Of a stretch of 32,000 nucleotides of DNA, positions 7,306 to 32,000 are shown in pieces. Origin of the DNA: Trichodesmium erythraeum IMS101 (GTDB taxonomy: Bacteria; Cyanobacteriota; Cyanobacteriia; Cyanobacteriales; Microcoleaceae). The translations under genes and the position numbers were made by a program. Within the stretch, counting starts at the first letter, position 1, and each line of letters begins with the position of its first letter. The DNA lies in NCBI RefSeq assembly GCF_000014265.1, contig NC_008312.1:1590001-1622000 (forward strand). Reading direction: 5' to 3'. The notes below the pieces were generated by a model. That model searched no databases. It had not been told where the DNA came from and saw nothing but the letters and a program-made list of their open reading frames with translations.

Positions 7306-7721
7306 ACATCGTGAGAAATCATGTAGAGATATTCCGTGAAACCTCCCTAGCAGAGTTTTACTAGCTATTAGATTTTGCTAGATGAATGCTTGATTCCTCC
7401 CGGACTGTTACGCGCGGGGGGCTATTAGCAGCCGAAACTCTGATACAGGTTGACTTTTTTCACTTAGCACGTCCTCCGTGATCCAAAAGCCAGGTGCTTT
7501 TTATGTCCCGCAGCAAAACCTAATACTAGTCTTATATTTGCCTGGTGCATCCGTTTTTTTGTCTCGGACTGCCCCCACAATTAAACAAAAGTATGGAACG
7601 AGTTGGAAAAACTTTACTGCCAAAGTCAAGACCCAATAGAAGGAAGTAGATTATAAATCCTCTGGTTAGTAGCTTTATGCCACAAAGTAGGACCAGTGGC
7701 TGAGATGACTTAATTATCAGC

Positions 7722-14272: not shown

Positions 14273-15049
14273 TCAGCGTGTAGCAGTAGAAATAGTTTTT
14301 CCTAGTGACATTAAAGTTCGTTTAAAATTTTCAGCACGACTGCAGAAATCATCACCTTTTCCTAAATCAAATGCCATTCCTTTGACTCCTGATAATAACT
14401 TTAAATAAACTTGACTTTCGGCATCTTGAGTGGCAATAACTAAATAAAATTGTTCTATTCCTGTAGTTTGAATAGCTGTTACCACTTCCTCAATATTTTT
14501 AGTTTTTTTATCTGGAATATGTGGAGGAGCATCTGTTACTAAAACAATAGCTTTATTACTTTCTAAATCAAAGGGTTGAGCCAATGCCAACATGACTGCA
14601 TCTAAACTACTTTCTGGCACATCTCCCCCTCCATAAGCTTTAATTTTAGCAACTTTTTGGCGGAAAAGAATGGGATTATTTGTAAAGACTTTTCTGTCAA
14701 ATTTTAAGAGTTGATGTTCTTCATTAATGAGGCGATCGCGAAATTCTATTAAACCCACTCTAACTCAGACCCCATCTTTTTCGATAGTATCAGCAAATTC
14801 CATGATTGTTTCTTTTATCCCATAAATTTCACCTTGCATACTGCCAGTACAATCTAACACAAACATGATATCTGCTTTGCGTTTTATGTCTAAAGTTTCT
14901 GCTCTTTGCCTCAGAGTTTCAATAAATTTTTCTCGGGAATAACTTTTAACAGTTTTTGCTGCTAGTTTTGTCTCCAATTTTAGACCACACTCATTACAGA
15001 ATTTAGCAGTATCTAAATTTGAGGCTCCACATTTAGGGCAAGCTTTCAT
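14273..15049 (-). pseudogene. Zinc-ribbon + von Willebrand A (vWA) protein interrupted by one in-frame TGA
   Basis: ORFs 14765-15049 and 14273-14758 are in the same frame, separated only by TGA at 14765-14767 (...EKDGV*VRVGLIEFRDR...). The N-terminus has the CPKCG...CNECG zinc ribbon. The MIDAS motif is DCTGS in FVLDCTGSMQG, and a later VLVTDAPPH strand follows. Confidence 0.75.
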
Positions 15050-16242: not shown

Positions 16243-17400
16243 TCTAAAGTTTTTGAAATTTTAGGTTATCAGTTTTTCAGTTATCAGTTTTCCAATTATC
16301 AGTTTTTTGATTTATTAGTATTAGTACCTCCAGTTAAAACTTCAGTTCAGAGTTTTTTTCAGTTATAAGTTTTTTCAGTTATCAGCTTTTTTAGTTATTA
16401 GCTATTAGTATCTCAAATTCAAGCTTCAATTATCAGCTTTTTCATTTCTTAGCTTTTTCATTTCTTAGCTTTTTCAGTTATCAGCTTTTTCAGTTATCAG
16501 CTTTTTGATTTATTAGCTATTAGTACCTCCGATCCAAGCTTTAATTATCAGTTTTTTTCAGTTCTTAGTTTTTTCAGTTATCATTTATCAGTTATCAATT
16601 ATCAGTTTTTTCAGTTATCAGCTTTTTGATTTATTAGCTATTAGTACCTCCGATCCAAGCTTTAATTATCAGTTTTTTTCAGTTATTATTTATCAGTTAT
16701 CATTTATCAGTTATCATTTATCAGTTTTTTCAGTTATCAGCTTTTTGATTTATTAGCTATTAGTACCTCCAGTTCAAGCTTCAGTTATCAACTTTTTTAG
16801 TTGTGAGCTATTAGTACCTTCAGTTCAAGCTTTAATTATCAGTTTTTTTTCAGTTATTAACTTTTTCAGTTATCAGCTTTTTCAGTTATCAGCTTTTTTA
16901 GTTGTTAGCTATTACTACCTCCATTTCAAGCTTTAATCATCAGTTTTTTTTCAGTTATCAGCTTTTTCAGTTATCAGCTTTTTGATTTATTAGTTATGAG
17001 TACCTTCAGTTAAAGCTTCAATTATCAGCTTTTTCAGTTCTTATATTTTTCAGTTCTTAGCCTTTTTAGTCATCAACTTTTTCAGTCATCAGCTTTTTTA
17101 GTTATTAGTTATTAGCACCTCCAGTTAAAGCTTCATTTATAACTCAGTTATTAACCTTTTTTTACTTATAATCTTTTTTAGTTATTAGCTATTAGTAACT
17201 TCAGTTTAAGCTTCAATCATCAGCTTTTTTTAGCTATTAAATTTTTCAATTATTGGCTTTTTTAGTTATCAGTTTTTCAAGGGTTAACTTTTTTAGTTAT
17301 TAGTGATTAGTCTTTCCACTTAAAACTTTAGTTATTAGTTACTAGGTAAGGATTCAGGTATACAAAATAGGTAAGTATTCAGTTATTAGCTTTTTTTAGT
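16243..17400. repeat. Nested tandem-repeat array B (STRR-like) between the PP2C and kinase genes
   Basis: About 10 units of roughly 90-125 bp share the core TTAGCTATTAGTACCTCC..CAAGCTT. They are padded by 16-mers (TTTTTCAGTTATCAGC) and heptamers (TTATCAG/TTATCAT). For example, 16492-16611 and 16612-16731 look nearly identical. Confidence 0.85.
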
Positions 17401-17554
17401 GAGTAGCTGGGGTATTGAAAAATTATTGATTGGTCAAATTATTAATTGAGAGAGAATTAAAATTTACTGTCAAACTACACTGCTTTAACTTTAGAAGTAA
17501 TTATTCTCTATTAATTCCTAATCACTCAGTTCTTGCCTAAAAAAATATGTTTGT

Positions 17555-18409
17555 TTACCATTTTTTTATTGATTGAATTACTGTTTCATTATCTGCACTT
17601 TTTCCAAGATGACGCCATACAATTAAAGTCTGATTATCCGTTTCCCCCCCCTTGCTGAGATTGACTAATTAATTTCTTAGAGATTTTTTTTAAATCTCCT
17701 TCTGATAGGATATCTTTTAATTCTTTTTCCTGGAAATTACTACTCACTCCATCACTACATAATAATAGTAAATCTTCTGCATAAAGCGAAACATAATGTA
17801 TGGGTAAATCTGGTGGTAAATTATCACACCCTAAATAAAATTCTAACATATTCTTTCCCTCGTGGTGAGCTGCCATTTCTGAGATAATTATTCCTCCTCG
17901 TCTTATGGCACTTGCTAATGTGTGGTTGTCGGTAATTTGTCTGATTTTTTGACCATAATTTTGATGAGAATAATGATAGATTAGGCTGTCTCCTAAGTTG
18001 GAAATAATTGCTATTGCTTCGGAGATTAAGGCAACTGCTAATGTGGCTCCAGATTTATCCCAACTATTGTTTTTTATTATTCTTTTTATATGAGCGTTTG
18101 TTTCGGCGATCGCTTCTTTTATGGCTATAGTTAATGTTTCTATAGTTGGGAGTTTTTTGCTTTTTTCTTGGTTGTTAATACTGGGTTCAAATACTAAGGT
18201 TTCAAATAGGCTGAGGCTGATCTTTTTAGGACTTCTCTACTGATTTCTTCTCCATGTTCGTAACCTCCTATTCCATCTGATATTGCTAATAATGTTAATG
18301 GGCTTTGCTTTGGGTTTGGGGTGAGTTGGCAGATGATGAAGCTGTCTTCGTTTTTCGGTCGTTTGTTAGTTTCGCTACGACTTACATATTCAATGTTTGT
18401 TGTTTTCAT
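17555..18409 (-). pseudogene. PP2C-family Ser/Thr phosphatase with two frameshifts
   Basis: Three collinear frames. (1) MKTTN...NEDSFII...LLAISDGIGGYEHGEE (18409-18194). (2) ...GATLAVALI...NLGDSLIY...ITDNHT...LLLCSDGV... (to 17634). (3) DNQTLIVWRH...KKW* (to 17555). The shifts lie near 18195-18210 and at the C8/G8 run 17644-17651. Confidence 0.8.
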
Positions 18410-19153
18410 TTTTGGCTCTTGGGATTAAAATTAGATAATTTTATAGTTTTTGCTTTTTGGTTTTAATATTTTAAATTTTACGGTTTTTCTGCCGTTGTTA
18501 AATTGGCAAATTTTTCTGAGTTGCTGAATGAGGTTTCAATGTTTTTGGCGCTTTTTTGAGATTTTGTGATATCCTATACATAGGATATAATTTTCTACGC
18601 TTATACTTTAATTCATTTTTATGGCTTTTAATTCTTATTCTGCCGTTGTCTTGGTTTGTTTTTTTCTGATTCTTCTTTGCTCAAAATGACTAATTTTTCT
18701 CTGGTGGTTTTGGCGGTTTTGACAAATTATTTTTTGTGTGATAAGAAAACGGAATTTTTTTGATTTTTAGCAGTGGTTTTATGTTGAATAAAAAGTCTAG
18801 TGCGTAGGCGATATAACCTAAATAACATGATAATACCAAAATTTTCTTCGGGATGCAACCCTGATTTTTTGGTCGGCGCCAGTTTTTTGAGCTCCAGAAA
18901 ATGAGGATAAAAATATACCCTAGTTCAATTAGTGTTGATAAGAGCAAAAGCAACTACTGCTTTTATCATTCTTCCAGGAATTGAAAAGAATCAAACAACC
19001 TTTCGGCAAACCCACTCAGCTGTCTAACTCTGGTTGATTTTCGGAAGCTTGATTAAAAACTCAGGAACTGAGTGGATTCTTCCACACTCTTGATAAATTC
19101 CCATTTACCAGTCTATTATTCTGCCGGATTCTTTTTTTCTCTGATTCTTCTTT
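18263..19153. repeat. Left arm of a 0.89-kb inverted repeat (PP2C codons 1-49 + about 410-nt leader + promoter module)
   Basis: The reverse complement of 18263-19153 matches 27165-28054, with only scattered single-base differences in the stretches I compared by eye. Confidence 0.85.
18830..18858 (-). promoter_or_regulatory. Predicted promoter of the PP2C-kinase-vWA operon (module copy)
   Basis: On the minus strand: TTGCAT (18858-18853), a 17-nt spacer, then TGgTATTAT (-10 at 18835-18830). The box ACTAGACTTTTTATTCAAC is the reverse complement of 18783-18801. The leader to the PP2C ATG (18409) is about 410 nt. Confidence 0.55.
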
Positions 19154-19154
19154 A

Positions 19155-22100
19155 GAAAATTTGAGTAGAGTTATCCATATTTATGAAATTTTTAGCAGAA
19201 GACCAACACCATAATTTAAATTTGAAGACCTCAAAAGTTTCCCATTATAATCACCTACTTATTTCTTGAAATTTTTAATTCTAGACTTGGAATTTTGAAC
19301 TTTGAATTTTTGAATTTTTGAATTTTAAATTTTGAATGTAGGATTTTTTTCCTTTTCCCTTTTCCCTCTTTCCTTTTTTCCTTAAACTTCATAAAATTTG
19401 AGTAGAGTTATCCATATTTATCAAACTTTTAGCAGAAAACCAACACCATAATTTAAATTTGAAGACCTCAAAAGTTTCCCATTGTCATCACCTACTTATT
19501 TCTTGAAATTTTTAATTCTAGACTTGGAATTTTGAACTTTGAATTTTTGAATTTTTGAATTTTAAATTTTGAATGTAGGATTTTTTTTCCTTTTCCCTTT
19601 TCCCTCTTTCCTTTTTTCCTTAAACTTCAGAAAATTTGAGTAGAGTTATCCATATTTATCAAACTTTTAGCAGAAAACCAACACCATAATTTAAATTTGA
19701 AGACCTCAAAAGTTTCCCATTATCATCACCTACTTATTTCTTGAAATTTTTAATTCTAGACTTGGAATTTTGAACTTTGAATTTTTGAATTTTTGAATTT
19801 TAAATTTTGAATGTAGGATTTTTTTCCTTTTCCCTTTTCCCTCTTTCCTTTTTTCCTTAAACTTCAGAAAATTTGAGTAGAGTTATCCATATTTATGAAA
19901 TTTTTAGCAGAAGACCAACACCATAATTTAAATTTGAAGAGCTCAAAAGTTTCCCATTATAATCACCTACTTATTTCTTGAAATTTTTAATTCTAGACTT
20001 GGAATTTTGAACTTTGAATTTTTGAATTTTTGAATTTTAAATTTTGAATGTAGGATTTTTTTCCTTTTCCCTTTTCCCTCTTTCCTTTTTTCCTTAAACT
20101 TCAGAAAATTTGAGTAGAGTTATCGATATTTATCAAACTTTTAGCAGAAAACCAACACCATAATTTAAATTTGAAGACCTCAAAAGTTTCCCATTATCAT
20201 CACCTACTTATTTCTTGAAATTTTTAATTCTAGATTTGGAATTTTGAACTTTGAATTTGGAATTTTAAATTTTGAATGTAGGATTTTTTTCCTTTTCCCT
20301 TTTCCCTCTTTCCTTTTTTCCTTAAACTTCATAAAATTTGAGTATAGTTATCCATATTTATCACACTTTTAGCAGAAAACCGACACCATAATTTGAATTT
20401 TAAGAACTCAAAAGTTTCCCATTATCATCACCTACTTATTTCTTGAAATTTTTAATTCTAGACTTGGAATTTTGAACTTTGAATTTTTGAATTTTAAATT
20501 TTTGAATTTGGAATTTTAAATTTTGAATGTTGGATTTTTTTCCTTTTCCCTTTTCCCTCTTTCCTTTTTTCCTTAAACTTCAGAAAATTTGAGTATAGTT
20601 ATCCATATTTATCACACTTTTAGCAGAAAACCGACACCATAATTTGAATTTGAAGAACTCAAAAGTTTCCCATTATCATCACCTACTTATTTCTTGAAAT
20701 TTTTAATTCTAGACTTGGAATTTTGAACTTTGAATTTTTGAATTGTAAATTTTTGAATTTGGAATTTTAAATTTTGAATGTAGGATTTTTTTCCTTTTCC
20801 CTTTTCCCTCTTTCCTTTTTTCCTTAAACTTCAGAAAATTTGAGTAGAGTTATCCATATTTATGAAATTTTTAGCAGAAAACCGAAACCATAACTTAAAT
20901 TAGAAGACCTCAAAAGTTTCCCATTATCATCACCTACTTATTTCTTGAAATTTTTAATTCTAGATTTGGAATTTTGAACTTTGAATTTGGAATTTTAAAT
21001 TTTGAATGTAGGATTTTTTTCCTTTTCCCTTTTCCCTCTTTCCTTTTTTCCTTAAACTTCAGAAAATTTGAGTAGAGTTATCCATATTTATGAAATTTTT
21101 AGCAGAAGACCAACACCATAATTTAAATTTGAAGAGCTCAAAAGTTTCCCATTATCATCACCTACTTATTTCTTGAAATTTTTAATTCTAGATTTGGAAT
21201 TTTGAACTTTGAATTTGGAATTTTAAATTTTGAATGTAGGATTTTTTTCCTTTTCCCTTTTCCCTCTTTCCTTTTTTCCTTAAACTTCAGAAAATTTGAG
21301 TAGAGTTATCCATATTTATGAAATTTTTAGCAGAAAACCGAAACCATAACTTAAATTAGAAGACCTCAAAAGTTTCCCATTATCATCACCTACTTATTTC
21401 TTGAAATTTTTAATTCTAGACTTGGAATTTTGAACTTTGAATTTTTGAATTTTTGAATTTTAAATTTTGAATGTTGGATTTTTTTCCTTTTCCCTTTTCC
21501 CTCTTTCCTTTTTTCCTTAAACTTCAGAAAATTTGAGTATAGTTATCCATATTTATCACACTTTTAGCAGAAAACCGACACCATAATTTGAATTTGAAGA
21601 ACTCAAAAGTTTCCCATTATCATCACCTACTTATTTCTTGAAATTTTTAATTCTAGACTTGGAATTTTGAACTTTGAATTTTTGAATTGTAAATTTTTGA
21701 ATTTGGAATTTTAAATTTTGAATGTAGGATTTTTTTCCTTTTCCCTTTTCCCTCTTTCCTTTTTTCCTTAAACTTCAGAAAATTTGAGTAGAGTTATCCA
21801 TATTTATGAAATTTTTAGCAGAAAACCGAAACCATAACTTAAATTAGAAGACCTCAAAAGTTTCCCATTATCATCACCTACTTATTTCTTGAAATTTTTA
21901 ATTCTAGATTTGGAATTTTGAACTTTGAATTTGGAATTTTAAATTTTGAATGTAGGATTTTTTTCCTTTTCCCTTTTCCCTCTTTCCTTTTTTCCTTAAA
22001 CTTCAGAAAATTTGAGTAGAGTTATCCATATTTATGAAATTTTTAGCAGAAGACCAACACCATAATTTAAATTTGAAGAGCTCAAAAGTTTCCCATTATC

Positions 22101-22825
22101 ATCACCTACTTATTTCTTGAAATTTTTAATTCTAGATTTGGAATTTTGAACTTTGAATTTGGAATTTTAAATTTTGAATGTAGGATTTTTTTCCTTTTCC
22201 CTTTTCCCTCTTTCCTTTTTTCCTTAAACTTCAGAAAATTTGAGTAGAGTTATCCATATTTATGAAATTTTTAGCAGAAAACCGAAACCATAACTTAAAT
22301 TAGAAGACCTCAAAAGTTTCCCATTATCATCACCTACTTATTTCTTGAAATTTTTAATTCTAGACTTGGAATTTTGAACTTTGAATTTTTGAATTTTTGA
22401 ATTTTAAATTTTGAATGTTGGATTTTTTTCCTTTTCCCTTTTCCCTCTTTCCTTTTTTCCTTAAACTTCAGAAAATTTGAGTAGAGTTATCCATATTTAT
22501 CAAACTTTTAGCAGAAAACCGAAACCATAACTTAAATTAGAAGACCTCAAAAGTTTCCCATTATCATCACCTACTTATTTCTTGAAATTTTTAATTCTAG
22601 ACTTGGAATTTTGAACTTTGAATTTTTGAATTTTTGAATTTTAAATTTTGAATGTTGGATTTTTTTCCTTTTCCCTTTTCCCTCTTTCCTTTTTTCCTTA
22701 AACTTCAGAAAATTTGAGTAGAGTTATCCATATTTATCAAACTTTTAGCAGAAAACCGAAACCATAATTTAAATTTGAAGACCTCAAAAGTTTCCCATTA
22801 TAATCACCTAATCATCACCTACTTA
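19155..22825 (+). repeat. Tandem array A: 15 full + 1 partial units of 228/237/251 bp
   Basis: The unit marker GAAAATTTGAGTAGAG recurs at 19155, 19392, 19630, 19867, 20104, 20332, 20583, 20834, 21062, 21290, 21527, 21778, 22006, 22234, 22471 and 22708. Each unit has a (T)GAATTTT microsatellite and a 34-nt pyrimidine tract. The array ends 19 nt before the target-1 ATG. Confidence 0.95.
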
Positions 22826-22843
22826 TTTAACTGAAAAAATATC

Positions 22844-24713
22844 ATGCGTTGCCTAAACTGCTATACCGATGGTATCCCACTTGAGACAGAAATATGTTCC
22901 AACTGTGGCGCATACCTACCATCACTGACCCGAGACCTTCTCAAACCAGGAACTCAACTTCGAGCCCAGACCTATCGAATAGACTACCCCTTAGGTCGAG
23001 GAGGGTTCGGCGTTACCTATTGAGGACACCACACATTATTAGAACAAATAGTCGCCATCAAAGAATACTATCCCCAAAACTACCCCCTGCGACACCCCAC
23101 CACTGGCGGCTTCACCATTCCCACAAACCAACAGGAAATATTTCAACGGGGTTTACAAAGATTTCTCCGAGAAGGGAAAATATTAGCCCAACTAAATCAT
23201 CTTCACGTGGTGGGGGTAACTGACTTATTTAAGGAAAATGAAACAGCTTACATGGTGATGGAGCTAGTTACAGGAAAAAGTCTCAGAAAAGAATTAGACT
23301 CTCAACCCCAGAAAAAATTTCCTCCTCAAAAAGTCAAAAAAATAATTACTGACCTCGTATCAGCATTATCCGCAGTACATAAAAAAGGAATATTTCACCT
23401 GGATATAAAACCCGATAATATTTTGCTAACTCCAGAAGGGCGGTTAGTATTAATTGACTTTGGCTCAGCACAACAAACCTTTGGTACTTCCATGGCTACT
23501 TCCAGCACTCGGACTTTTACTGAAGGTTATGTAGCTCCGGAAGTTCTCGCCGGGGGAGAAGTAGGAGTAGAAAGCGATATTTTTGAAGTCGGAATGATGG
23601 TTTATGAAATGTTGAGTGGGCAGTTACCTCCTAATGCTTTGGAACGTTTATTATTAAAAGCAAAAGGAAAAAGTTGGGAACCAGAAGGTTTAGAGTCATC
23701 TTGGCAAAAGCTGATAATGTCGGCTTTGGTTTTGGAAAAGGAAGGTCGCCCTGGAAATGTTGAAAAGTGGTGGGAGATAAATTTTCAGGAAAAATCAACT
23801 GACAGGACTCAGGAGTCAAAATTGAAAATATGGGAATTTATACAGAGAAAGAAAGATGTAAATTCTCCACCCCGACAAAAATTTAGTTTTGAGGTAATAA
23901 AGGTTAATTCCCGGGGTAAAGAAATTGACCGTCGTTCCTACGAAGCAGAATTTTTCGCAGAAAATTTAGGTAGGGGAGGGGGGTAGTCTTGGAAATGGTT
24001 TATATTCCTGGGGGAAGTTTTCTCATGGGGTCGCCGGAAAATGAGGCGGAAAGATACTCAATAAACTCTGATGAAGGTCCCCAACATCAAGTAAATCTCC
24101 AGCCTTTTTATATGAGCAAATATTCTATTACTCAAGACCAGTACCAAGCATGGGAAATAATCCTTCTTACTTTAAAGGAGGAAAACGCCCAGTAGAAAAA
24201 GTGAGCTGGCACGACGCTACAAAGTTTTGTCAGAAGCTATCATCAAAAACTGGGAAAATTTACACACTACCTAGTGAGAGTCAATGGAAATATGCTTGTC
24301 GCGCCGGGACTACTGCTCCTTTTTATTTTGGAGAAACTATAACGCCTGGGTTAGTTAACTACAGTGGTAACTATCCTTACGCCAATGCTCCTAAAGGAAA
24401 ATATCGAGGAGAAACAACAGATATAGGAAGTTTTCCTCCTAATGCTTTTGGTTTATATGATATGCACGGCAATGTTTGGGAATGGTGTCTAGATACTTGC
24501 CACGATAATTATAATGGAGCACCTACTGATGGAAGTTCTTGGGAAAGTGGGGGTGATAGTAATGACAGGTTGCTCCGTGGCGGTTGCTGGATCCACAATT
24601 CTAGATTTTGCCGGAGTGCCTGGCGCAACTATCTCTATGCCGACTACCTCTCCAACGATAGGGGTTTTCGAGTCATCTCCTCTTCCCCGGTGGTTTCTGG
24701 CTTTCATTCCTAG
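22844..24713 (+). pseudogene. DGR target 1: zinc-ribbon / Ser/Thr kinase / FGE-sulfatase (C-type lectin fold) protein, disrupted
   Basis: Collinear along its full length with the intact paralog at 29340-31193. It carries an in-frame TGA at 23021-23023 (the paralog has CGA Arg in GVTYRGHH). A frameshift sits near 23965-23990 (an extra 5 nt relative to the paralog). A second frameshift sits near 24145-24152 (4 nt missing). ORF pieces 23207-23986, 23989-24195 and 24150-24713 belong to it. Confidence 0.85.
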
Positions 24714-24721
24714 TATTCTTC
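24572..24721 (+). other. DGR variable repeat VR1 (3' end of target 1, runs 8 nt past the stop)
   Basis: Gap-free alignment to TR at offset 2031. There are 15 mismatches, 12 of them at TR adenines. The 3' IMH-like part is identical to TR except at 24680 (C in VR1, G in TR). Confidence 0.85.
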
Positions 24722-24730
24722 CACTTTTTA

Positions 24731-24775
24731 CTTTTCCCCTTTCCCCCTTTTTCCTTCTTTCCTTTTTCCTCTTTT
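24731..24775 (+). repeat. 45-nt uninterrupted polypyrimidine tract just downstream of VR1
   Basis: CTTTTCCCCTTTCCCCCTTTTTCCTTCTTTCCTTTTTCCTCTTTT. Related tracts occur in every array A/A' unit and about 50 nt downstream of the target-2 stop (purine strand at 29251-29289). No such tract follows TR. Confidence 0.8.
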
Positions 24776-25166
24776 GAGTCCCGCTTTAGCCGGCCGAAAT
24801 TTTTTTTCAAATTTAGGGTTGTTATGGCTTAGGCCATAGATAAGAAAGCCAAGGTCCCAAAATTTGAAGTAGGTTGGGCCTCAGAACGAAACCCAACATT
24901 CTCCCAATGGCAATAACGGCCTTATACCAAGGACTTATCTTGATACTGAAATATGAAATACTGAAATTATTAGGGGGTAAAAGTTTTAAAAGTTGAAAGT
25001 TTTAATCCATGACTTTTGATTTTGGTAAGGGGGGGTTGACTTCTAAAAACCGTGAAAAAAAAAGATTAATTTCATGGGAAAGAAACTGAAAAACAGTTAG
25101 CTTTAGGTTTTCTATTGACTCTTTTTGCACTTCCCCGAAATAGTATAAAAATTTAATCGCTATAGA

Positions 25167-25469
25167 ATGAACGAATTATCAATTATCCAAAAAACTTACG
25201 ACTTAATCATTTGGTATGTACCAATAATTAACAGACTACCTAAAACTCACAAATTTCAAATTGGCGATCGCTTAGTCAACAACTTATATAATTTTCTAGA
25301 ACTACTAATTATTGCCAAATATGCCTCAGAAAAACTCAACATACTAGAATCTCTAAACCCCAAACTAGACATAGTTCGTTATCAAAACAGAATTATTTTA
25401 GACTTCCAAATAATCAACAATAAACGCTACGAATATATCAGCCAAATAATCACAGAAATAGGCAAATAA
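25167..25469 (+). CDS. avd: Avd-like DGR accessory protein (four-helix-bundle, 23S-rRNA-IVS protein family), probably truncated at the C-terminus by a TAA
   Basis: 100 aa, helical. N-terminal YDLIIWYVPIINRLPKTHKFQIGDRL matches the Avd/IVS-protein pattern. Directly after the stop at 25467-25469 the same frame continues as LGIWIKQQKPKNP* (to 25511), resembling the usual Avd tail ..LGGW.K. Confidence 0.7.
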   Translation: MNELSIIQKTYDLIIWYVPIINRLPKTHKFQIGDRLVNNLYNFLELLIIAKYASEKLNILESLNPKLDIVRYQNRIILDFQIINNKRYEYISQIITEIGK

Positions 25470-25521
25470 TTAGGAATTTGGATTAAACAACAAAAACCGA
25501 AAAATCCTTAAACCATCAAAC

Positions 25522-26581
25522 ATGAAAAGACAGAAAAACTTATATCCCCAAATTACATGTTTTGACAACCTCCTCCTCGCAGCAAAAAAATCCCAGAAAG
25601 GAAAAAAATATAAACAGAATTTTCTGAAATTTAACTACAACTTAGAATTCATAATTACTACAACTAAAAACAGAATTATAAACTAAAACCTATCAACCAG
25701 GAAAATATAACACCTTGAAAATTATCGAAAGAAAACCCAGAATAATTTCCGCAGCTCCCTACCGAGACCGAATCATCCATCACGCCTTATGTAATATTAT
25801 TATTCCCATCTTTGAAAAAACATTTATCTACGATACTTATGCCAATAGAATCAATTTTGGTACTCATAAAGCCCTAAGTCGCTTCACCAAATTTTCCTGT
25901 TCCAGCTGTTACGTTTTACAATGCGACATAGTTAAATATTTTCCCAGCATCGACCATCAAATTCTCAAAGAAATTATTCGTCGCCAAATCAAATGTCAAG
26001 ATACTCTCTGGTTAATTGAAAAAATTATTGATGGAAGTAACCAACAAATTCCGGTATTAACTAAATTTCCCGGAGACGACTTACTCTCTTCAATAAATAG
26101 GAGAAAAGGTTTACCCCTAGGAAATTTAACTAGCCAATTTTTCGCCAACTTATACCTCAATAATTTCGATCATTTCATCAAAGAAGAACTGAAAGTCAAA
26201 AAATATCTACGTTATGTCGATGACTTTGCTTTATTCTCAGACGACAAAAAATTTCTAGTTATTGCCAGACAAAAAATTGAAACATATCTAGCCAACCTCT
26301 GCCTCAAGATTCATCCTATTAAAAGCCAATTATTTCAAACAAAAAAAGGAGCTAACTTTGTTGGTTTCCTAGTATTGCCAAACCGCATTAGAATACGTTC
26401 AGAAAATTTAAGAGCTGCCAGAAAAAAAATTCGACAATTACACGCACATTATCGACAAGGAAACATAGAATCTAGCCACATCCAAAAATCTCTACAAAGT
26501 TGGTTTGCTCATTTAGACCATGGCAATACCTGGCGCTTGAAACAAAAAATACTAACTTTTCTCAATACTATGGGAGAATAA
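25522..26581 (+). pseudogene. DGR-type reverse transcriptase, N-terminal region disrupted
   Basis: MKRQKNLYPQITCFDNLLLAAKKSQKGKKY..NYNLE reads in frame 1. After a 1-nt frameshift near 25648-25655 the sequence continues as [46 protein letters not shown]..., with an in-frame TAA at 25679-25681. It has the DGR-RT motif [17 protein letters not shown] and RYVDDF. It is collinear with Bordetella bRT as I recall it. The longest open piece is 25715-26581. Confidence 0.85.
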
Positions 26582-26599
26582 TTACGGGACTGACAAACC

Positions 26600-26752
26600 A
26601 AAGCTCCGTGGCGGTAGCTGGAACCACAATTCTAGACATTGCCGGAGTGCCAGGGGCAACTATAAAAATGCCGACAACCTCAACAACAATAGGGGTTTTC
26701 GAGTCATCTCGTCTTCCCCGGTGGTTTCTGGCTTTCATTCCTAGTATTCTTC
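26600..26752 (+). other. DGR template repeat (TR), 19 nt downstream of the RT stop
   Basis: Homologous to VR1 and VR2. Adenine-rich, and in the target frame it reads ..GGSWNHNSRHCRSARGNYKNADNLNNNRGFRVISSSPVV. The ORF-track entry 26500-26769 is an out-of-frame reading of it. Confidence 0.85.
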
Positions 26753-26763
26753 ATTGCCTGAGT

Positions 26764-27208
26764 TGGTAAATGGGAATTTATCAAGAGTGTGGAAGAGTCC
26801 AGTCAGTTCCTGAGTTTTTAATCAAGCTTCCGAAAATCAACCAGAGTTAGACAGCTGAGTGGGTTTGCCGAAAGGTTGTCTGATTCTTTTCAATTCCTGG
26901 AAGAATGATAAAAGCAGTAGTTGCTTTTGCTCCTATCAACACTCATTGAACTAGGGTATATTTTTATCCTTTATCCTCATTCTCGGGAGCTCCAAAAAAC
27001 TGTCGCCGACCCAAAAATCAGGGTTGCATGCTGAAGAAAATTTTGGTATTATCATGTTAGTAGGTGTAGCTCGCCCATACACTAGACTTTTTATTCAACA
27101 TAAAACCACTGCTAAAAATCAAAACCGCCAAAACCACCAGAGAAAAATTAGTCATTTTCAGCAAATAAGAATCAGAGAAAAAAAGAAACCGGCAGAATAA
27201 TAGACTGG
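26764..27208 (+). repeat. Extra tandem copy of the about 440-bp promoter module, beginning 11 nt after TR
   Basis: 26764-27208 and 27209-27650 are direct repeats (TGGTAAATGGGAATTTATCAAGAGTGTGGAAGA...). They differ by substitutions and small indels. Confidence 0.8.
27024..27052 (+). promoter_or_regulatory. Module promoter, copy in the extra tandem unit
   Basis: TTGCAT (27024-27029), a 17-nt spacer, then TGgTATTAT (-10 at 27047-27052). The box ACTAGACTTTTTATTCAAC is at 27081-27099. Confidence 0.5.
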
Positions 27209-27458
27209 TAAATGGGAATTTATCAAGAGTGTGGAAGAATCCACTCAGTTCCAGAGTTTTTAATCAAGCTTCCGAAAATCAACCAGAGTTAGACAGCTGA
27301 GTGGGTTTGCCGAAAGGTTGTCTGATTCTTTTCAATTCCTGGAAGAATGATAAAAGCAGTAGTTGCTTTTGCTCTTATCAAGACTAATTGAACTAGGGTA
27401 TATTTTTATCCTCATTTTCTGGGGCTCAAAAAACTGGCGCCGACCAAAAAAATCAGGG

Positions 27459-27487
27459 TTGCATCCCGAAGAAAATTTTGGTATTAT
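27459..27487 (+). promoter_or_regulatory. Module promoter, duplicate of the PP2C operon promoter
   Basis: TTGCAT (27459-27464), a 17-nt spacer, then TGgTATTAT (-10 at 27482-27487). The box is at 27516-27534. Confidence 0.5.
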
Positions 27488-27907
27488 CATGTTAGTTAGG
27501 TGATATCGCCTACGCACTAGACTTTTTATTCAACATAAGACCACTGCTAAAAATCAAAAAAATTCCGTTTTCTTATCACACAAAAAATAATTTGTCAAAA
27601 CCGCCAAAACCACCAGAGAAAAATTAGTCATTTTGAGCAAAGAAGAATCAGAAAAAAACAAACCAAGACAACGGCAGAATAAGAATTAAGAGCCATAAAA
27701 ATGAATTAAAGTATAAGCGTAGAAAATTATATCCTATGTATAGGATATCACAAAATCTCAAAAAAGCGCCAAAAACATTGAAACCTCATTCAGCAACTCA
27801 GAAAAATTTGCCAATTTAACAACGGCAGAAAAACCGTAAAATTTAAAATATTAAAACCAAAAAGCAAAAACTATAAAATTATCTAATTTTAATCCCAAGA
27901 GCCAAAA

Positions 27908-28054
27908 ATGAAAACAACAAACATTGAATATGTAAGTCGTAGCGAAACTAACAAACGACCGAAAAACGAAGACAGCTTCATCATCTGCCAACTCACCCCA
28001 AACCCAAAGCAAAGCCCATTAACATTATTAGCAATATCAGATGGAATAGGAGGT
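27908..28054 (+). pseudogene. Truncated duplicate of PP2C codons 1-49
   Basis: Reads MKTTNIEYVSRSETNKRPKNEDSFIICQLTPNPKQSPLTLLAISDGIGG, the same as 18409-18263. Homology stops at 28054, where array A' begins. Confidence 0.85.
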
Positions 28055-29339
28055 AAGGAAAAAAATTCAAGATTCAAAATTTAAAATTCCAAATTCAAAG
28101 TTCAAAATTCCAAATCTAGAATTAAAAATTTCAAGAAATAAGTAGGTGATGATAATGGGAAACCTTTGAGTTCTTCAAATTCAAATTATGGTGTTGGTTT
28201 TCTGCCAAAAGTTTGATAAGTATGGATAACTCCACTCAAATTTTCTGAAGTTTAAGGAAAAAAGGAAAGAGGAAAAAGGGAAAAGGGAAAAGGAAAAAAA
28301 ATCCAAATTCCAAATTCAAAAATTCCAAATTTAAAATTCCAAATTCAAAGTTCAAAATTCCAAATCTAGAATTAAAAATTTCAAGAAATAAGTAGGTGAT
28401 GATAATGGGAAACCTTTGAGGTCTTCAAATTCAAATTATTGCGCCGGTCTTCTGCTAAAAGTTTGATAAGTATGGATAACTCCACTTAAATTTTCTGAAG
28501 TTTAAGGAAAAAAGGAAAGAGGGAAAAGGGAAAAGGAAAAAAAATCCTAAGTTCAAAATTTAAAATTCCAAATTCAAAGTTCAAAATTCCAAATCTAGAA
28601 TTAAAAATTTCAAGAAATAAGTAGGTGATGATAATGGGAAACCTTTGATGTCTTCAAATTCAAATTATGGTGCCGGTCTTCTGCTAAAAATTTCATAAAA
28701 AATATGGATAACTCCACTCAAATTTTCTGAAGTTTAAGGAAAAAAGGAAAGAGGGAAAAGGGAAAAGGAAAAAGGGAAAAGGAAAAAAATTCCAAATTCC
28801 AAATTCAAAAATTCCAAATTTAAAATTCCAAATTCAAAGTTCAAAATTCTAAATCTAGAATTAAAAATTTCAATAAATAAGTAGGTGATGATAATGGGAA
28901 ACCTTTGAGGTCTTCAAATTCAAATTATTGCGCCGGTCTTCTGCTAAAAGTTTGATAAGTATGGATAACTCCACTTAAATTTTCTGAAGTTTAAGGAAAA
29001 AAGGAAAGAGGGAAAAGGGAAAAGGAAAAAGGGAAAAGGAAAAAAATTCCAAATTCCAAATTCAAAAATTCCAAATTTAAAATTCCAAATTCAAAGTTCA
29101 AAATTCCAAATCTAGAATTAAAAATTTCAATAAATAAGTAGGTGATGATAATGGGAAACCTTTGAGGTCTTCAAATTCAAATTATTGCGCCGGTCTTCTG
29201 CTAAAAGTTTGATAAGTATGGATAACTCCACTCAAATTTTCTGAAGTTTAAGGAAAAAAGGAAAGACAGAAAAGGGAAAAGGAAAAAAATCCTAAATTCA
29301 AAACCTAAAATTAAAAATTAAAAATCCAAAAGAAAAACA
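28055..29339 (-). repeat. Tandem array A' (inverted copy of the array A family), about 5 units of 232-257 bp
   Basis: The marker CTCAAATTTTC (reverse complement of GAAAATTTGAG; two copies read CTTAAATTTTC) ends at 28245, 28495, 28727, 28984 and 29241. These units have diverged somewhat from array A units. The array abuts the target-2 stop codon at 29340. Confidence 0.9.
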
Positions 29340-29481
29340 CTAAGAATTAAAAGCAGAAACCACCGGGGAAGATGAGACAACCCGAAAACCCCTATAGTAG
29401 TAAAGATCATCGGCATTGTAATAGAAGCGCCAGGCACTACGACAATTTGTAGAATAGCTGTCCCAGCAACCGCCACGGAGC
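29340..29481 (-). other. Variable repeat VR2 (TR-homologous 3' end of target 2)
   Basis: Gap-free alignment to TR 26603-26744 gives 30 mismatches, 15 at TR adenines and 15 elsewhere (mostly C->T). It is TR-related but not a clean product of this TR. Confidence 0.6.
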
Positions 29482-31193
29482 ACTCTTTTACGATTACTAC
29501 CTCCAGTTTTCCAAGCACTTCCGTTAGTAGGTGCTCCATAATAATTATGGTGCCAAGCATCTAAACACCATTCCGAAACATTGCCGTGCATATCATATAA
29601 ACCAAAGGCATTAGGAAGAAAACTTCCCACATCTGTTGTTTGTTCCCGATACTCTCCAAATGGAGCATTGCCGTAAGGATAGTTACCATCGTAGTTAACT
29701 AACTCAGACGTCATAGTTTCTCCAAAATAAAAAGGAGTACTTGTCCCGGCACGACAAGCATATTCCCATTGACTTTCGCTGGGCAACCTGTAAATTTTCC
29801 CAGTTTTCGACGATAGCTTCTCACAAAACTTTGTAGCGTCGTGCCAGCTCACTCTTTCTACTGGGCGTTTTCCTCCTTTAAAGTAAGAAGGATTATCTCC
29901 CATAATAGCTTGGTACTGATCTTGAGTAATAGGATATTTGCTCATCAAGAAAGGCTTAATATTAACTTGATGTTGTGGACTTTCACTATCGAATCTTTCG
30001 TCCTCATATTCCGGTGACCCCATGAGAAAACTTCCCCCAGGAATATAAACCATTTCCAAGACCAACCCACTATCTAAATTTTCTGCCAAAAATTCTGCTT
30101 CGTAGGAACGACGGTCAATTTCTTTACCCCGGGAATTAACCTTTATTACCTCAAAACCAAATTTTTGTCGGGGCGGAGAACTTATATCTTTCTTTCTGTT
30201 TTTAAATTCCTTTGTTTTCCATCCTGACTCCTGAGTCCTTTCAGTTGATTTTTTGTGAAAATTCATTTCCCACCACTCCTCAATATTTCCAGGGCGACCT
30301 TCCTTTGCCAAAACTAAAGCCGACATTAGCAACTTTTGCCAAGACGACTCTAAGCCTTCAGGTTCCCAACTTTTTTCTTTTGATAATGAACGTTCCAGAA
30401 CATTGGGAGGTAACTGCCCACTCAACATTTCATAAACCATCATTCCTACTTCAAAAATATCACTTTCTACCCCTACCTCCCCCCTGGCGAGAACCTCCGG
30501 AGCCGCATAACTCTCAGCAAAACTCTCAGTGCTGGAAGTACCCATCGAAGTACCAAAAGTTTGTTTTGCCGAGCCAAAGTCAGTCAATACTAACCGTCCT
30601 TCTGGAGTTAGTAAAATATTATCGGGTTTTATATCCAGGTGAAATATTCCTTGTTGATGTACTGCCGATAATGCTGATACAAGGTCAGTAATTATTTCTT
30701 TGACTTTTTGAGGGGGAAATTTTTTCTCAGGTTGAGAATCTAATTCTTTTCTGAGACTTTTTCCTCTAACTAGCTCCATCACCAGGTAAGCTGTTTCATT
30801 TTCCTCAAATAAATCAATTACCCGCACCACATGAGGATGATTTAGTTGGGCTAATATTTTCCCTTCCTGGAGAAACCTTCGCAAACCCTGTTGAAATATT
30901 TCCTGTTGGTTTCTGGGAATGGTGAAACCTCCAGTGGTGGGATGTCGCAGGGCGTAATTTTGGGGATAGTATTCTTTAATAGCGACTATTTGTTTTAATA
31001 ATGTATGGTGTCCTCGATAAGTAACACCAAACCCTCCTCGACCTAAGGGGTAGTCTATTTGATAGGGCTTGTCTCCTAGTTGAGTACCTGGTGTTAGGAG
31101 GCCTCGGATTAGTGATGGTAGGTATGCGCCACAGTTATAACATATTTTTGTCTCAAGTGGAATACCGTCGGTATGGCAGTTTAAGCAACGCAT
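29340..31193 (-). CDS. DGR-type target 2: zinc-ribbon / Ser/Thr kinase / FGE-sulfatase (CLec-fold) protein, intact
   Basis: 617 aa. Zinc ribbon CLNCH...CYNCG. Kinase motifs GRGGFGVTY, HLDIKPDNILL, DFGSA and AAPE. FGE-sulfatase motifs RVSWHDATKFC, RLPSESQWEYACRAGT, GLYDMHGNVSEWC and LRGGCW. VR2 lies at the extreme C-terminus. Confidence 0.9.
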   Translation of the reverse strand: MRCLNCHTDGIPLETKICYNCGAYLPSLIRGLLTPGTQLGDKPYQIDYPLGRGGFGVTYRGHHTLLKQIVAIKEYYPQNYALRHPTTGGFTIPRNQQEIFQQGLRRFLQEGKILAQLNHPHVVRVIDLFEENETAYLVMELVRGKSLRKELDSQPEKKFPPQKVKEIITDLVSALSAVHQQGIFHLDIKPDNILLTPEGRLVLTDFGSAKQTFGTSMGTSSTESFAESYAAPEVLARGEVGVESDIFEVGMMVYEMLSGQLPPNVLERSLSKEKSWEPEGLESSWQKLLMSALVLAKEGRPGNIEEWWEMNFHKKSTERTQESGWKTKEFKNRKKDISSPPRQKFGFEVIKVNSRGKEIDRRSYEAEFLAENLDSGLVLEMVYIPGGSFLMGSPEYEDERFDSESPQHQVNIKPFLMSKYPITQDQYQAIMGDNPSYFKGGKRPVERVSWHDATKFCEKLSSKTGKIYRLPSESQWEYACRAGTSTPFYFGETMTSELVNYDGNYPYGNAPFGEYREQTTDVGSFLPNAFGLYDMHGNVSEWCLDAWHHNYYGAPTNGSAWKTGGSNRKRVLRGGCWDSYSTNCRSAWRFYYNADDLYYYRGFRVVSSSPVVSAFNS

Positions 31194-31284
31194 GATTTTA
31201 AGAGGTCAAAAATTAGATAAGAGTTTCAAAGCTTTCCGTAATTATAGTGTGGAGAATTTCCTGAAAAAGAAGGAAAAATGAGCA

Positions 31285-31313
31285 TAGCATCTTCAAAATA
31301 ACTATGATATAAT
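31285..31313 (+). promoter_or_regulatory. Array C unit 1 promoter
   Basis: TAGCAT (31285-31290), a 17-nt spacer, then TGaTATAAT (-10 at 31308-31313). Confidence 0.5.
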
Positions 31314-31530
31314 TTATGTATAGTTATAAATGTGGCACTATACTAGACTTTTTATTCAATGTAAAAAAAGCGATCGCTACAACACAACAATATATAAAAG
31401 GAAATTTAAGACATTCGAATGTTAGACAGTAAAAGATGTCAGAGAGCTTAAAAAAAAAATAACAACTAAATCATTATTACTTGCATTTTTTTTCATTCTG
31501 TGAAGCTCCAAAAAAAAGGAACAACGAGGG

Positions 31531-31559
31531 TAGCATCTTCAAAATAACTATGGTATAAT
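31531..31559 (+). promoter_or_regulatory. Array C unit 2 promoter
   Basis: TAGCAT (31531-31536), a 17-nt spacer, then TGgTATAAT (-10 at 31554-31559). Confidence 0.5.
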
Positions 31560-31779
31560 AAATAATGGGTATTCAATGCATATACTAGACTTTTTATTCA
31601 ACGTAAAAAAAGCGATCGCTACAACACAACAATATATAAAAGGAAATTTAAGACATTCGAATGTTAGACAGTAAAAGATGTCAGAGAGCTTAAAAAAAAA
31701 ATAACAACTAAATCATTATTACTTGCATTTTTTTTCATTCTGGGAAGCTCAAAAAAAAAGGAACGAGAAACAACGACGG

Positions 31780-31808
31780 TAGCATCTTCAAAATAACTAT
31801 GGTATAAT
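31780..31808 (+). promoter_or_regulatory. Array C unit 3 promoter
   Basis: TAGCAT (31780-31785), a 17-nt spacer, then TGgTATAAT (-10 at 31803-31808). Confidence 0.5.
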
Positions 31809-32000
31809 AAATAATGAGGATTAAATCCATATACTAGACTTTTTATTCAACGTAAAAAAAGCGATCGCCACAACACAACAATATATAAAAGGAAATTTAA
31901 GACATTCGAATGTTGGATAGTAAAAGATGTCAGAGAGCTAAAAAAAAAATAACAACTAAATCATTATTACTTGCATTTTTTTTTCATTCTGTGAAGCTCC

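Follow-up and report, generated by a model that had tools for sequence, protein, structure and literature searches.

The window, by which we mean the whole stretch of 32,000 nucleotides that was analysed, encodes proteins identical to the Trichodesmium erythraeum IMS101 proteins ABG50396-ABG50408. It holds a DGR locus with two kinase-FGE target genes, laid out as follows:

22844-24713, plus strand: target-1, a kinase-FGE DGR target and now a pseudogene (TGA at codon 60, at least two frameshifts), with its variable region (VR) at 24572-24721
24731-24775, plus strand: pyrimidine tract of 45 nt just past the target-1 stop, homologous to the tract of the array units below and followed by a hairpin and a T-run
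25167-25469, plus strand: Avd accessory gene (ABG50406; PF22296, bAvd)
25522-26581, plus strand: DGR reverse transcriptase (RT), a pseudogene (frameshift near codon 43 and an in-frame stop; annotated remnant of 288 aa)
26603-26752, plus strand: template repeat (TR), 90% identical to VR1, with the differences mostly at TR adenines
29340-31193, minus strand: target-2, an intact kinase-FGE DGR target of 617 aa (ABG50408)
31264-32000, minus strand: R2, a separate tandem array of 242-249-bp units upstream of target-2 that runs past the window end (Tandem Repeats Finder, TRF)

The locus is decaying, as target-1, the RT and a PP2C phosphatase gene are all pseudogenes, and the DGR here is inactive. 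Fragmentation of target-1 is repeated in independent assemblies, according to the gene tables of 10 among 22 contigs that carry the adjacent Avd gene. A DGR with locus tags Tery_1727-1731 and a TR transcription start site (TSS) at 2632789r has been described for T. erythraeum (PMC4143802). Its strand and locus tags could not be reconciled with the window orientation that we inferred from the order of protein accessions; it is probably the same DGR, because only one RT cluster was found from T. erythraeum.

The intergenic space upstream of target-1 is filled by a tandem array, R1, and a smaller part of the same array lies behind target-2. The array and the features that bound or subdivide it are:

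19150-22828, plus strand: R1 on the target-1 side, 15 full units and a truncated 16th that merges into the target-1 leader (TRF, repeat families, unit alignment and difference matrix)
20583-21526 and 21527-22470, plus strand: two four-unit superunits of 944 bp (251-228-228-237), with 0 mismatches in 944 positions
22660-22699, plus strand: one example of the 40-nt homopyrimidine tract found once per unit (run scan)
22775-22804, plus strand: gene-proximal promoter-like site TTGAAG-18-TATAAT, about 40 nt before the target-1 ATG (consensus scan and alignment, a sequence match only)
28055-29352, minus strand: R1 on the target-2 side, five units from the target-2 stop codon, cut off in the pyrimidine tract at 28060 (TRF, repeat families)
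18257-19153, plus strand: flank A, the left copy of a 0.9-kb inverted duplication bounding the inverted DGR core, which holds the PP2C 5' end and one R3-type unit
27163-28060, minus strand: flank A', the right copy, 98-99% complementary to flank A and ending in PP2C codons 1-51

TRF reports the target-1 side as one array at 19150-22810, with a period of 237, 15.5 copies, 93% matches and a score of 6088. Our own dissection places the starts of units U1-U8 at 19150, 19387, 19625, 19862, 20099, 20327, 20578 and 20829, and those of U9-U16 at 21057, 21285, 21522, 21773, 22001, 22229, 22466 and 22703. The unit lengths are, in order, 237, 238, 237, 237, 228, 251, 251, 228, 228, 237, 251, 228, 228, 237 and 237 bp, the last unit being truncated. 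Every difference between the length classes (228, 237/238 and 251 bp) falls within a region of GAATTTT(T) heptamers in the unit alignment; by TRF these recur with a period of 7 in 6.6-10 copies per unit and occupy approximately 50-70 bp of each unit. Perfect identity at an offset of 944 spans 1029 nt (20511-21539). In the difference matrix, the unit pairs U7/U11, U8/U12, U9/U13 and U10/U14 have 0 differences and the remaining pairs have 2-15. The units are thus arranged head-to-tail at 93-100% identity, as in a variable-number tandem repeat (VNTR). An earlier note on this DNA had described sixteen units, length classes set by heptamer sub-repeats and a tandemly repeated 944-bp superunit, all of which hold. 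Two of its measurements needed revision: (i) the polypyrimidine tract, given as 34 nt, is present in all 15 full units as an uninterrupted run of 40 nt, or 41 nt in U2; and (ii) the array, said to end 19 nt before the ATG, matches the unit consensus up to 22828, which is 15 nt upstream of the ATG at 22844, the last plus-strand unit running out into the target-1 leader. Homopurine or homopyrimidine runs of 22 nt or more occur in the window only inside R1 units or just past the target-1 stop.

We found no coding capacity in R1, in agreement with the earlier reading: each frame has 79-94 stop codons, and the longest open stretch is 65 codons. A 28-codon ORF was considered and rejected, being restricted to the units that bear TATGAAA and not conserved. 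Whole units repeat without unique segments between them in the unit alignment, again as noted before, which sets R1 apart from a CRISPR array. R1 is also distinct from the template/variable repeats of the DGR, as the TR/VR pair lies elsewhere in the window. Its resemblance to target coding sequence is limited to approximately 13 nt at the unit start, which match the extreme 3' end.

The minus-strand half of R1 starts at the target-2 stop codon. At the far end of this half, PP2C codons 1-51 (27908-28060) in flank A' are fused to a truncated R1 unit. The five units behind target-2, the inversion that separates them from the rest, and the RT and PP2C pseudogenes had escaped the earlier note. An inversion between the 0.9-kb inverted copies (18257-19153 and 27163-28060) split the array, and R1 therefore has 16 units before target-1 and five behind target-2, a count of 16+5 that comes from one Sanger-era reference assembly of IMS101. 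The plus and minus halves differ by 10-15% and the two copies of flank A by 1-2%, a disparity that requires either heterogeneity among the units before the split or homogenisation after it.

Related lineages contain the same spacer at lower copy number. In a Trichodesmium MAG (L118, with four similar places), the target-2 stop is followed by exactly one R1 unit and then by the position of the target-1 ATG, so that the relative has a single-copy counterpart at the same position; its contig passes through the unit unbroken. In MAG_R01 (L117), which is 95-97% identical, at least three R1 units lie between target-2 and target-1, interrupted by a gap of 100 Ns. The order there, all on one strand, is target-2, R1 units, target-1, avd, RT, TR, a single flank A, R4 and kinase-FHA. 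Relative to MAG_R01, the window is forward at 22424-28060 and reversed at 16259-19153 and 29112-31262, and flank A is duplicated in the window. Copy number thus ranges from 1 (L118) through at least 3 plus an N-gap (MAG_R01) to 16+5 in the window, variation of the kind that defines a VNTR. A wild lineage with an intact RT (L121) lacks R1; its only target has an upstream region of the R2 type. A look-up of another IMS101 FGE paralogue returned just 1-kb contigs, without R1. An R1 24-mer had no match in GTDB representative genomes, and an R1 21-mer gave 21 matches in JGI metagenomes, all due to chance; both patterns fit internal array units and not the single-copy spacer, and the IMS101 genome itself lay outside the searches, so these negatives say little.

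The earlier note had linked the array to a DGR target and could assign it to no nameable repeat class. The link stands, in the sense that each unit corresponds to the spacer separating two tandem target paralogues; target-1, which the array precedes, is, however, a pseudogene. The lack of a class does not stand, as the first half of the unit is the conserved 3' flank of DGR-proximal targets, consisting of STRR-like heptamers and the pyrimidine tract. The tract in R1 aligns with the 3' flanks of target-1, L121 and L005 (local scores 49-51 vs a null of 21 +/- 3). In Trichodesmium and Okeania, DGR-proximal targets have such a tract after their stop/VR, but the TR has none after it; heptamer runs comparable to those of R1 come after target genes in loci of Okeania and Dapis. 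The target-1 promoter-like site is in the second half of the unit. As R1 repeats the whole spacer between paralogous targets, a promoter-like site and a target 3' flank are present in each unit.

We consider it reasonably probable that R1 arose by tandem, VNTR-like amplification of this promoter-bearing spacer through unequal recombination, between paralogous DGR targets arranged head-to-tail (target-2, then target-1). The ancestral single-copy spacer, of approximately 246 bp, opens with the 3' flank characteristic of DGR-proximal targets, made up of GAATTTT-type heptamers and the 40-nt pyrimidine tract; a unique block comes next, and then the promoter-like site with the first bases of the target-1 leader. 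An initial duplication would have fused the leader (...CCTACTTATTT) to the last ~13 nt of target-2 (TTTTAATTCT(T)AG...). Unequal homologous recombination or replication slippage may then have expanded and homogenised R1, with duplication of the 944-bp four-unit block as the latest event. Finally, an inversion with duplication of the 0.9-kb flank would have flipped a segment of R1x16, target-1, avd, RT and TR, with presumed breakpoints in the pyrimidine tract of one R1 unit and at PP2C codon 51. The earlier note had proposed very recent expansion by unequal recombination; the perfect 944-bp duplication and the differences between lineages (1, at least 3, and 16+5 units) fit this proposal. The sequences show the anatomy, the homology, the single-copy ancestral state and the lineage differences in copy number and orientation; we infer that recombination was the mechanism, that the pyrimidine tract served as a fragile site and that R1 is neutral. 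Overall, R1 resembles a recently expanded repeat in a decaying locus more than it does a novel RNA or defence element.

The most serious competing explanation, which we nonetheless regard as unlikely, is a functional array of ncRNA genes, with one promoter per unit and either a transcript of ~230-250 nt or a long read-through RNA. Such RNAs would control the target genes or serve as a pyrimidine- or purine-rich sponge, with the NsiR1 arrays of Nostocales and a 7-repeat array of T. erythraeum as analogues. The consensus scan speaks for it to some extent: TTGAAG-18-TATCAT or TATAAT recurs once per unit in 10 of the 16 units, with TATAAT in three (the gene-proximal site, U1 and U4) and TATCAT in the other seven, one of these with a weaker first hexamer. 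Precedent also exists, since NsiR1 consists of 12 tandem copies with a promoter each (PMC4030482) and T. erythraeum transcribes tandem arrays heavily, with 44.7% of TSS-associated primary reads coming from one tandem array and ~40% of active promoters yielding ncRNAs (PMC4143802). However, the first hexamer is weakened (TTAGAAG in the alignment) in several internal units, the gene that the promoter would serve is dead, and the single copy in a related lineage means that the array state is not conserved. The unit folds poorly, with z = +2.36 on the plus strand and +2.56 on the minus strand; on both strands, all 200 of 200 shuffles fold at least as well. No terminator-like site was found at 19150-22840 on either strand, and neither the window nor the Okeania and Trichodesmium arrays gave an Rfam match at gathering thresholds or at E <= 1. 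A repeated ncRNA was among the suggestions of the earlier note; a structured one is disfavoured by the z-scores (+2.4 and +2.6) and the lack of terminator-like sites, and transcripts of R1, if any, would be by-products without structure. In IMS101 as in MAG_R01, the best hexamers (TTGAAG and TATAAT) are those of the gene-proximal unit, a hint that the promoter, but not the array, was once under selection.

DNA structure adjoining the VR aids homing in the DGR of a Bordetella phage, and R1 might likewise act in cis, its pyrimidine tracts (potential triplex or H-DNA) and CTTCAGA(A/G)AAT forming a protein-binding or structure-forming array that would serve the DGR targets, e.g., in target-site recognition for homing, insulation or expression control. 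We rate this as improbable. The placement of the tract after the stop/VR and not after the TR favours it, as do motif arrays that flank related FGE-domain DGR-target genes in three loci (L006, L008 and L010) and occur nowhere else in the 1.55 Mb examined. CTTCAGA(A/G)AAT at the R1 unit start resembles a core common to arrays beside related targets in Okeania and another Trichodesmium, and could be a conserved functional element. R1 nevertheless scores below significance with the motif profile of the Okeania-type arrays (CTTCAGAGAATG core). One tract per target would suffice, and fifteen extra ones lie far from any VR; copy number ranges from 1 to 21 among close relatives, the DGR here is inactive, and there is no known binding protein. 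It is similarly improbable that the post-VR tract and the target-flanking arrays (core T-run-GGnGTGCTTCAGAGAATGAAAAA) are accessory elements of cyanobacterial DGR/kinase conflict loci, with R1 as an amplified version transcribed from every unit. The tract would then be, for example, a triplex-forming marker of the target site, in place of the cruciform of phage DGRs, and the arrays would be arrays of promoters or binding sites. Least probable is an assembly artefact, in which a shorter repeat would have given rise to the copy number, above all to the perfect 944-bp duplication, during reference assembly. The array, 3.7 kb of 237-bp units at 93-100% identity, is indeed hard to assemble, and all short-read assemblies collapse or break at R1. 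Yet the units carry distinct combinations of variants in an ordered pattern, and the flanks of the two array halves are distinct. The independent short-read assemblies break at the array edges, and one carries an N-gap; R1 is thus truly multi-copy in this lineage. We saw no evidence of a dedicated function for R1.

Spacer amplification, the reading that we prefer, places R1 in a known class, the tandem amplification of an intergenic segment. R1 shares with VNTRs its 93-100% identical head-to-tail units, an exact 944-bp higher-order repeat, copy-number differences among lineages and a single-copy ancestor; it differs in that its unit is the exact spacer of two paralogous DGR targets and in having later been split by inversion. 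Like the NsiR1 array near hetF in heterocystous cyanobacteria, it consists of gene-adjacent tandem intergenic units, each with a promoter-like element, in a filamentous host. In contrast, NsiR1 units encode a defined 60-nt sRNA in arrays conserved across genera (PMC4030482), whereas R1 has no terminator-like site, is depleted in structure and is single-copy in a close relative. The same genome contains another long non-coding tandem array of near-identical units, the >6-kb ncRNA array of seven repeats (736-973 bp) at IMS101 103-110 kb; its described unit size and location set it apart from R1, and its TSS has been mapped and its 260-nt RNA verified by Northern blot (PMC4143802). MITE-like repeats in the DGR loci of Thiohalocapsa PB-PSB1 are likewise non-coding tandem repeats in a multi-target locus with duplication of DGR parts and decay, but their sequences match IS-element terminal inverted repeats and fold into stable stem-loops, whereas R1 is a local, structure-poor spacer (PMC10907252). 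The GAATTTT(T) sub-region of the R1 unit, and that sub-region only, resembles the STRR heptanucleotides of filamentous cyanobacteria in being made of tandem intergenic heptamers. GAATTTT(T) is not known to be among the classical STRR heptamer sequences.

R1 accounts for one part of the non-coding DNA that makes up an unusually large share of the Trichodesmium genome, as a recently amplified intergenic spacer and not an unknown element. The locus illustrates the remodelling of a multi-target DGR: genes were duplicated, a spacer was amplified, an inversion duplicated a flank, genes decayed into pseudogenes and, in a sister lineage, the whole DGR core was deleted. These arrays also pose a practical problem, as short-read assemblies always break at them. 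If the R1 units are transcribed, up to 16 promoter copies ahead of a dead gene would constitute a natural promoter amplification. The conserved pyrimidine tract beside the VRs offers a testable lead on how cyanobacterial DGRs recognise their target sites.

Tandem Repeats Finder placed a single array of the R1 repeat family on the plus strand at 19150-22810 (period 237, 15.5 copies, 93% matches, score 6088). Anchoring on the conserved block, together with unit alignment, gave the sixteen unit starts that the earlier note had counted (U1-U16). The lengths of U1-U15 are 237, 238, 237, 237, 228, 251, 251, 228, 228, 237, 251, 228, 228, 237 and 237 bp, and the last unit is truncated. As that note had proposed, GAATTTT(T) sub-repeats set the length classes: unit alignment confines all length variation to this heptamer region. 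The tandem copy of a four-unit superunit was equally borne out, as the 944-bp block at 20583-21526 recurs at 21527-22470 with 0 mismatches, identity at an offset of 944 spans 1029 nt, and U7-U10 equal U11-U14; the remaining unit pairs differ at 2-15 positions. The array is indeed noncoding, with all six frames closed by 79-94 stops each. Each full unit does carry a pyrimidine tract, as an unbroken run of 40 nt rather than the 34 nt first given. The array was also said to lead directly into the start codon of target-1, a kinase-FGE target gene of the DGR; it does adjoin this gene, but unit similarity stops at 22828, the ATG lies at 22844, and the gene is a pseudogene. Nor is the repeat limited to the 19155-22825 interval originally reported, since five further R1-family units, 81-91% identical to the plus-strand units, occupy the minus strand between 29352 and 28055, starting at the stop codon of the paralogous target-2.

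Genes and elements of the DGR locus (window positions)
14273-15049, Zn-ribbon/VWA gene, split into two ORFs
16238-15057, minus strand, kinase-FHA gene, intact
18409-17555, minus strand, PP2C gene, frameshifted pseudogene
22844-24713, plus strand, target-1, kinase-FGE gene, with its variable region (VR) at 24572-24721
25167-25469, plus strand, Avd, intact
25522-26581, plus strand, DGR reverse transcriptase (RT) gene, pseudogene
26603-26752, plus strand, template repeat (TR)
31193-29340, minus strand, target-2, 617 aa, intact

Six proteins of the window exactly match IMS101 proteins in the range ABG50396 to ABG50408. Codon 60 of target-1 is TGA, and this gene also contains frameshifts; the RT gene has one frameshift and an in-frame stop. 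Because independent assemblies show the same target-1 fragmentation and a 288-aa RT remnant (gene tables of 10 among 22 Avd-bearing contigs), these are real pseudogenes. RT (373 aa), PP2C and VWA are all intact in L121, a locus from a wild metagenome lineage. In IMS101, the locus is decaying. Pfreundt et al. (PMC4143802) probably described this same DGR, since we found only one RT cluster in T. erythraeum; the strand and locus tags in that paper are not reconciled with the window. About 10 kb from the R1 array lies a DDE transposase fragment (PF13701/PF01609; 8452-9138, minus strand) that scores below or near the Pfam cut-offs.

The two parts of the array are bounded by inverted copies of a 0.9-kb flank. 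Flank A (18257-19153, left of the plus-strand array) is 98-99% identical to flank A' (27163-28060), and the pair encloses the DGR core (sixteen R1 units, target-1, avd, RT and TR). Flank A' adjoins the minus-strand array, and its last part, PP2C codons 1-51, runs directly into an R1 unit truncated 11 nt inside the pyrimidine tract; flank A meets the plus-strand array directly past such a tract. In L117, from Trichodesmium MAG_R01 (95-97% nucleotide identity to the window), flank A is single rather than double, and one strand carries target-2, R1 units (broken by a scaffold gap of 100 N), target-1, Avd, RT, TR, flank A, PP2C, the R4 array, kinase-FHA and VWA. The window aligns to L117 forward over 22424-28060 and reversed over 16259-19153 and 29112-31262. 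This gene order and alignment indicate that, relative to MAG_R01, IMS101 has its DGR core inverted and one flank duplicated, and that the inversion cut a single array into 16 + 5 units. The 8-kb segment could still be flipped by recombination between the flank A copies, and long pyrimidine tracts may have favoured breakage, as both of the inversion breakpoints within R1 fall at such a tract.

Parts of an R1 unit, in order from the target-2 stop codon
1, target-like end: about 13 nt, TTTTAATTCT(T)AG, similar to the 3' terminus of the target CDS
2, GAATTTT-type heptamers
3, 40-nt pyrimidine tract
4, block CTTCAGAAAATTTGAGTAGAGTTATCCATATTTAT...
5, promoter-like site, TTGAAG-18-TATCAT or TATAAT
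6, leader sequence, CACCTACTTATTT, running on into the target-1 leader in the last unit

The promoter-like site is best (TTGAAG + TATAAT) in the gene-proximal unit of both IMS101 and MAG_R01. Our scan listed it for 10 of the 16 units, reading TATAAT in three of them (U1, U4, U16) and TATCAT in the other seven; U2 carries TGTCAT, and the first hexamer is weakened in several units. In L118 (11842-12100), which comes from a further Trichodesmium MAG and has four similar counterparts, the target-2 stop is followed by exactly one R1 unit and then by a deletion junction at the target-1 ATG, which leads into R4 and kinase-FHA on a contig that is continuous through the single unit. This lineage, represented in at least 5 assemblies, is without the whole DGR core: target-1, avd, RT and TR are deleted, as are flank A and PP2C. 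L121 carries a single target, preceded by an R2-type region, and no R1. Copy number is 1 in L118, at least 3 in L117 and 21 in IMS101. Comparison with L117, L118 and L121 thus shows the R1 unit to be the complete spacer that arose through duplication of the target gene in the lineage of IMS101 and MAG_R01.

DGR-proximal targets in both Trichodesmium and Okeania end in a stop codon that leads into a pyrimidine tract of about 45 nt, a hairpin (CCCGC-TTTA-GCGGG) and a T-run (window 24714-24810; L121 2136-2230; L005 1443-1540; L006 11980-12075). R1 retains the tract without the hairpin, and its tract is significantly similar to the post-stop sequence of target-1, L121 and L005 (scores 49-51 versus a null of 21 +/- 3). 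The tract seen behind these targets is missing from the TR. The conserved 3' flank is thus far a candidate target-site feature of the DGRs in these cyanobacteria. Separately, tandem heptamer runs (GGAGTCA, AGAATTC, GTAGGGA, AGAAGTC) start right behind the stops of genes with an FGE domain in six loci (L012, L016, L017, L020, L024 and L025; Okeania and Dapis, with L016 from a cyanobacterial MAG that is unclassified), and resemble the GAATTTT heptamers behind target-2.

Other tandem arrays at the locus
R2, 31264-32000, minus strand, 242-249-bp units upstream of target-2, past the window end; also L001 9009-9930
R3, 26764-27658 (L117 16506-17348), 435-442-bp tandem duplication directly after the TR
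R4, 16266-17310 (L117 18665-19990), 1-kb array whose 16-nt and 115-nt units consist of TCAGTTA-type heptamers

Each R2 unit carries GGAGCTTCACAGAATGAAAAAAAA, HIP1 (GCGATCGC) and GTTGAATAAAAAGTCTAGT, and the gene-proximal copy has TTTACA-17-TATAGT. R3 contains a small hairpin with a T-run (TCGGGATGCAACCCTGA-T7) and the motif GAGCCCCAGAAAATGAGG, and is homologous to terminal units of Okeania arrays (L008 ~7190-7330; L006 ~13362). R4 lies directly upstream of kinase-FHA; L121 has no R4 between PP2C and kinase-FHA, and carries a 351-bp array behind an FGE gene. Related DGR-target genes with an FGE domain are flanked by arrays of 72-82-bp and 192-bp units in Okeania (L006 8315-9769 and 12530-13381; L008 32-311 and 2783-3260) and Trichodesmium MAG_R02 (L010 11171-12540). 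These arrays share a core, T-run-GGnGTGCTTCAGAGAATGAAAAA, whose orientation is plus on the upstream side of the gene and minus on the downstream side, and have no Rfam match. Across the 1.55 Mb of sequence analysed, a profile of this core matched only these three loci, plus R2 and R3 weakly. R1 starts with the related CTTCAGAAAATTTGAGTAG and does not score with the profile.

The best-supported reading of the R1 array is a VNTR-like amplification, by unequal recombination or slippage, of a spacer bearing a promoter-like site. The main rival, a transcribed ncRNA or promoter array, is kept because T. erythraeum transcribes other arrays very strongly; we consider it rather unlikely, as R1 has no terminator-like site on either strand, its unit folds worse than 200/200 shuffles in either direction (z = +2.36 for the plus strand, +2.56 for the minus strand), and it has no Rfam match. 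The same three results speak against a structured RNA. The array state is not conserved, with a single copy in a close relative, and the gene behind it is dead. A second rival, that the array acts in cis as DNA, is less probable still. A misassembled copy number is a minor concern, and quite improbable.

The R1 array is real and its origin explained, as a lineage-specific tandem amplification of the inter-target DGR spacer, split by inversion. In mechanistic terms, unequal recombination or slippage would have amplified the spacer between two DGR targets, and an inversion would have split the amplified array, in a locus undergoing rearrangement and degradation. Abundant repeats and non-coding DNA are typical of the T. 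erythraeum genome (PMC4143802), and R1 belongs with intergenic repeats of the VNTR type, in a cyanobacterium rich in repeats. The finding is of modest interest, and two leads deserve a test: (i) the pyrimidine tract beside variable regions, and (ii) transcription from each unit.
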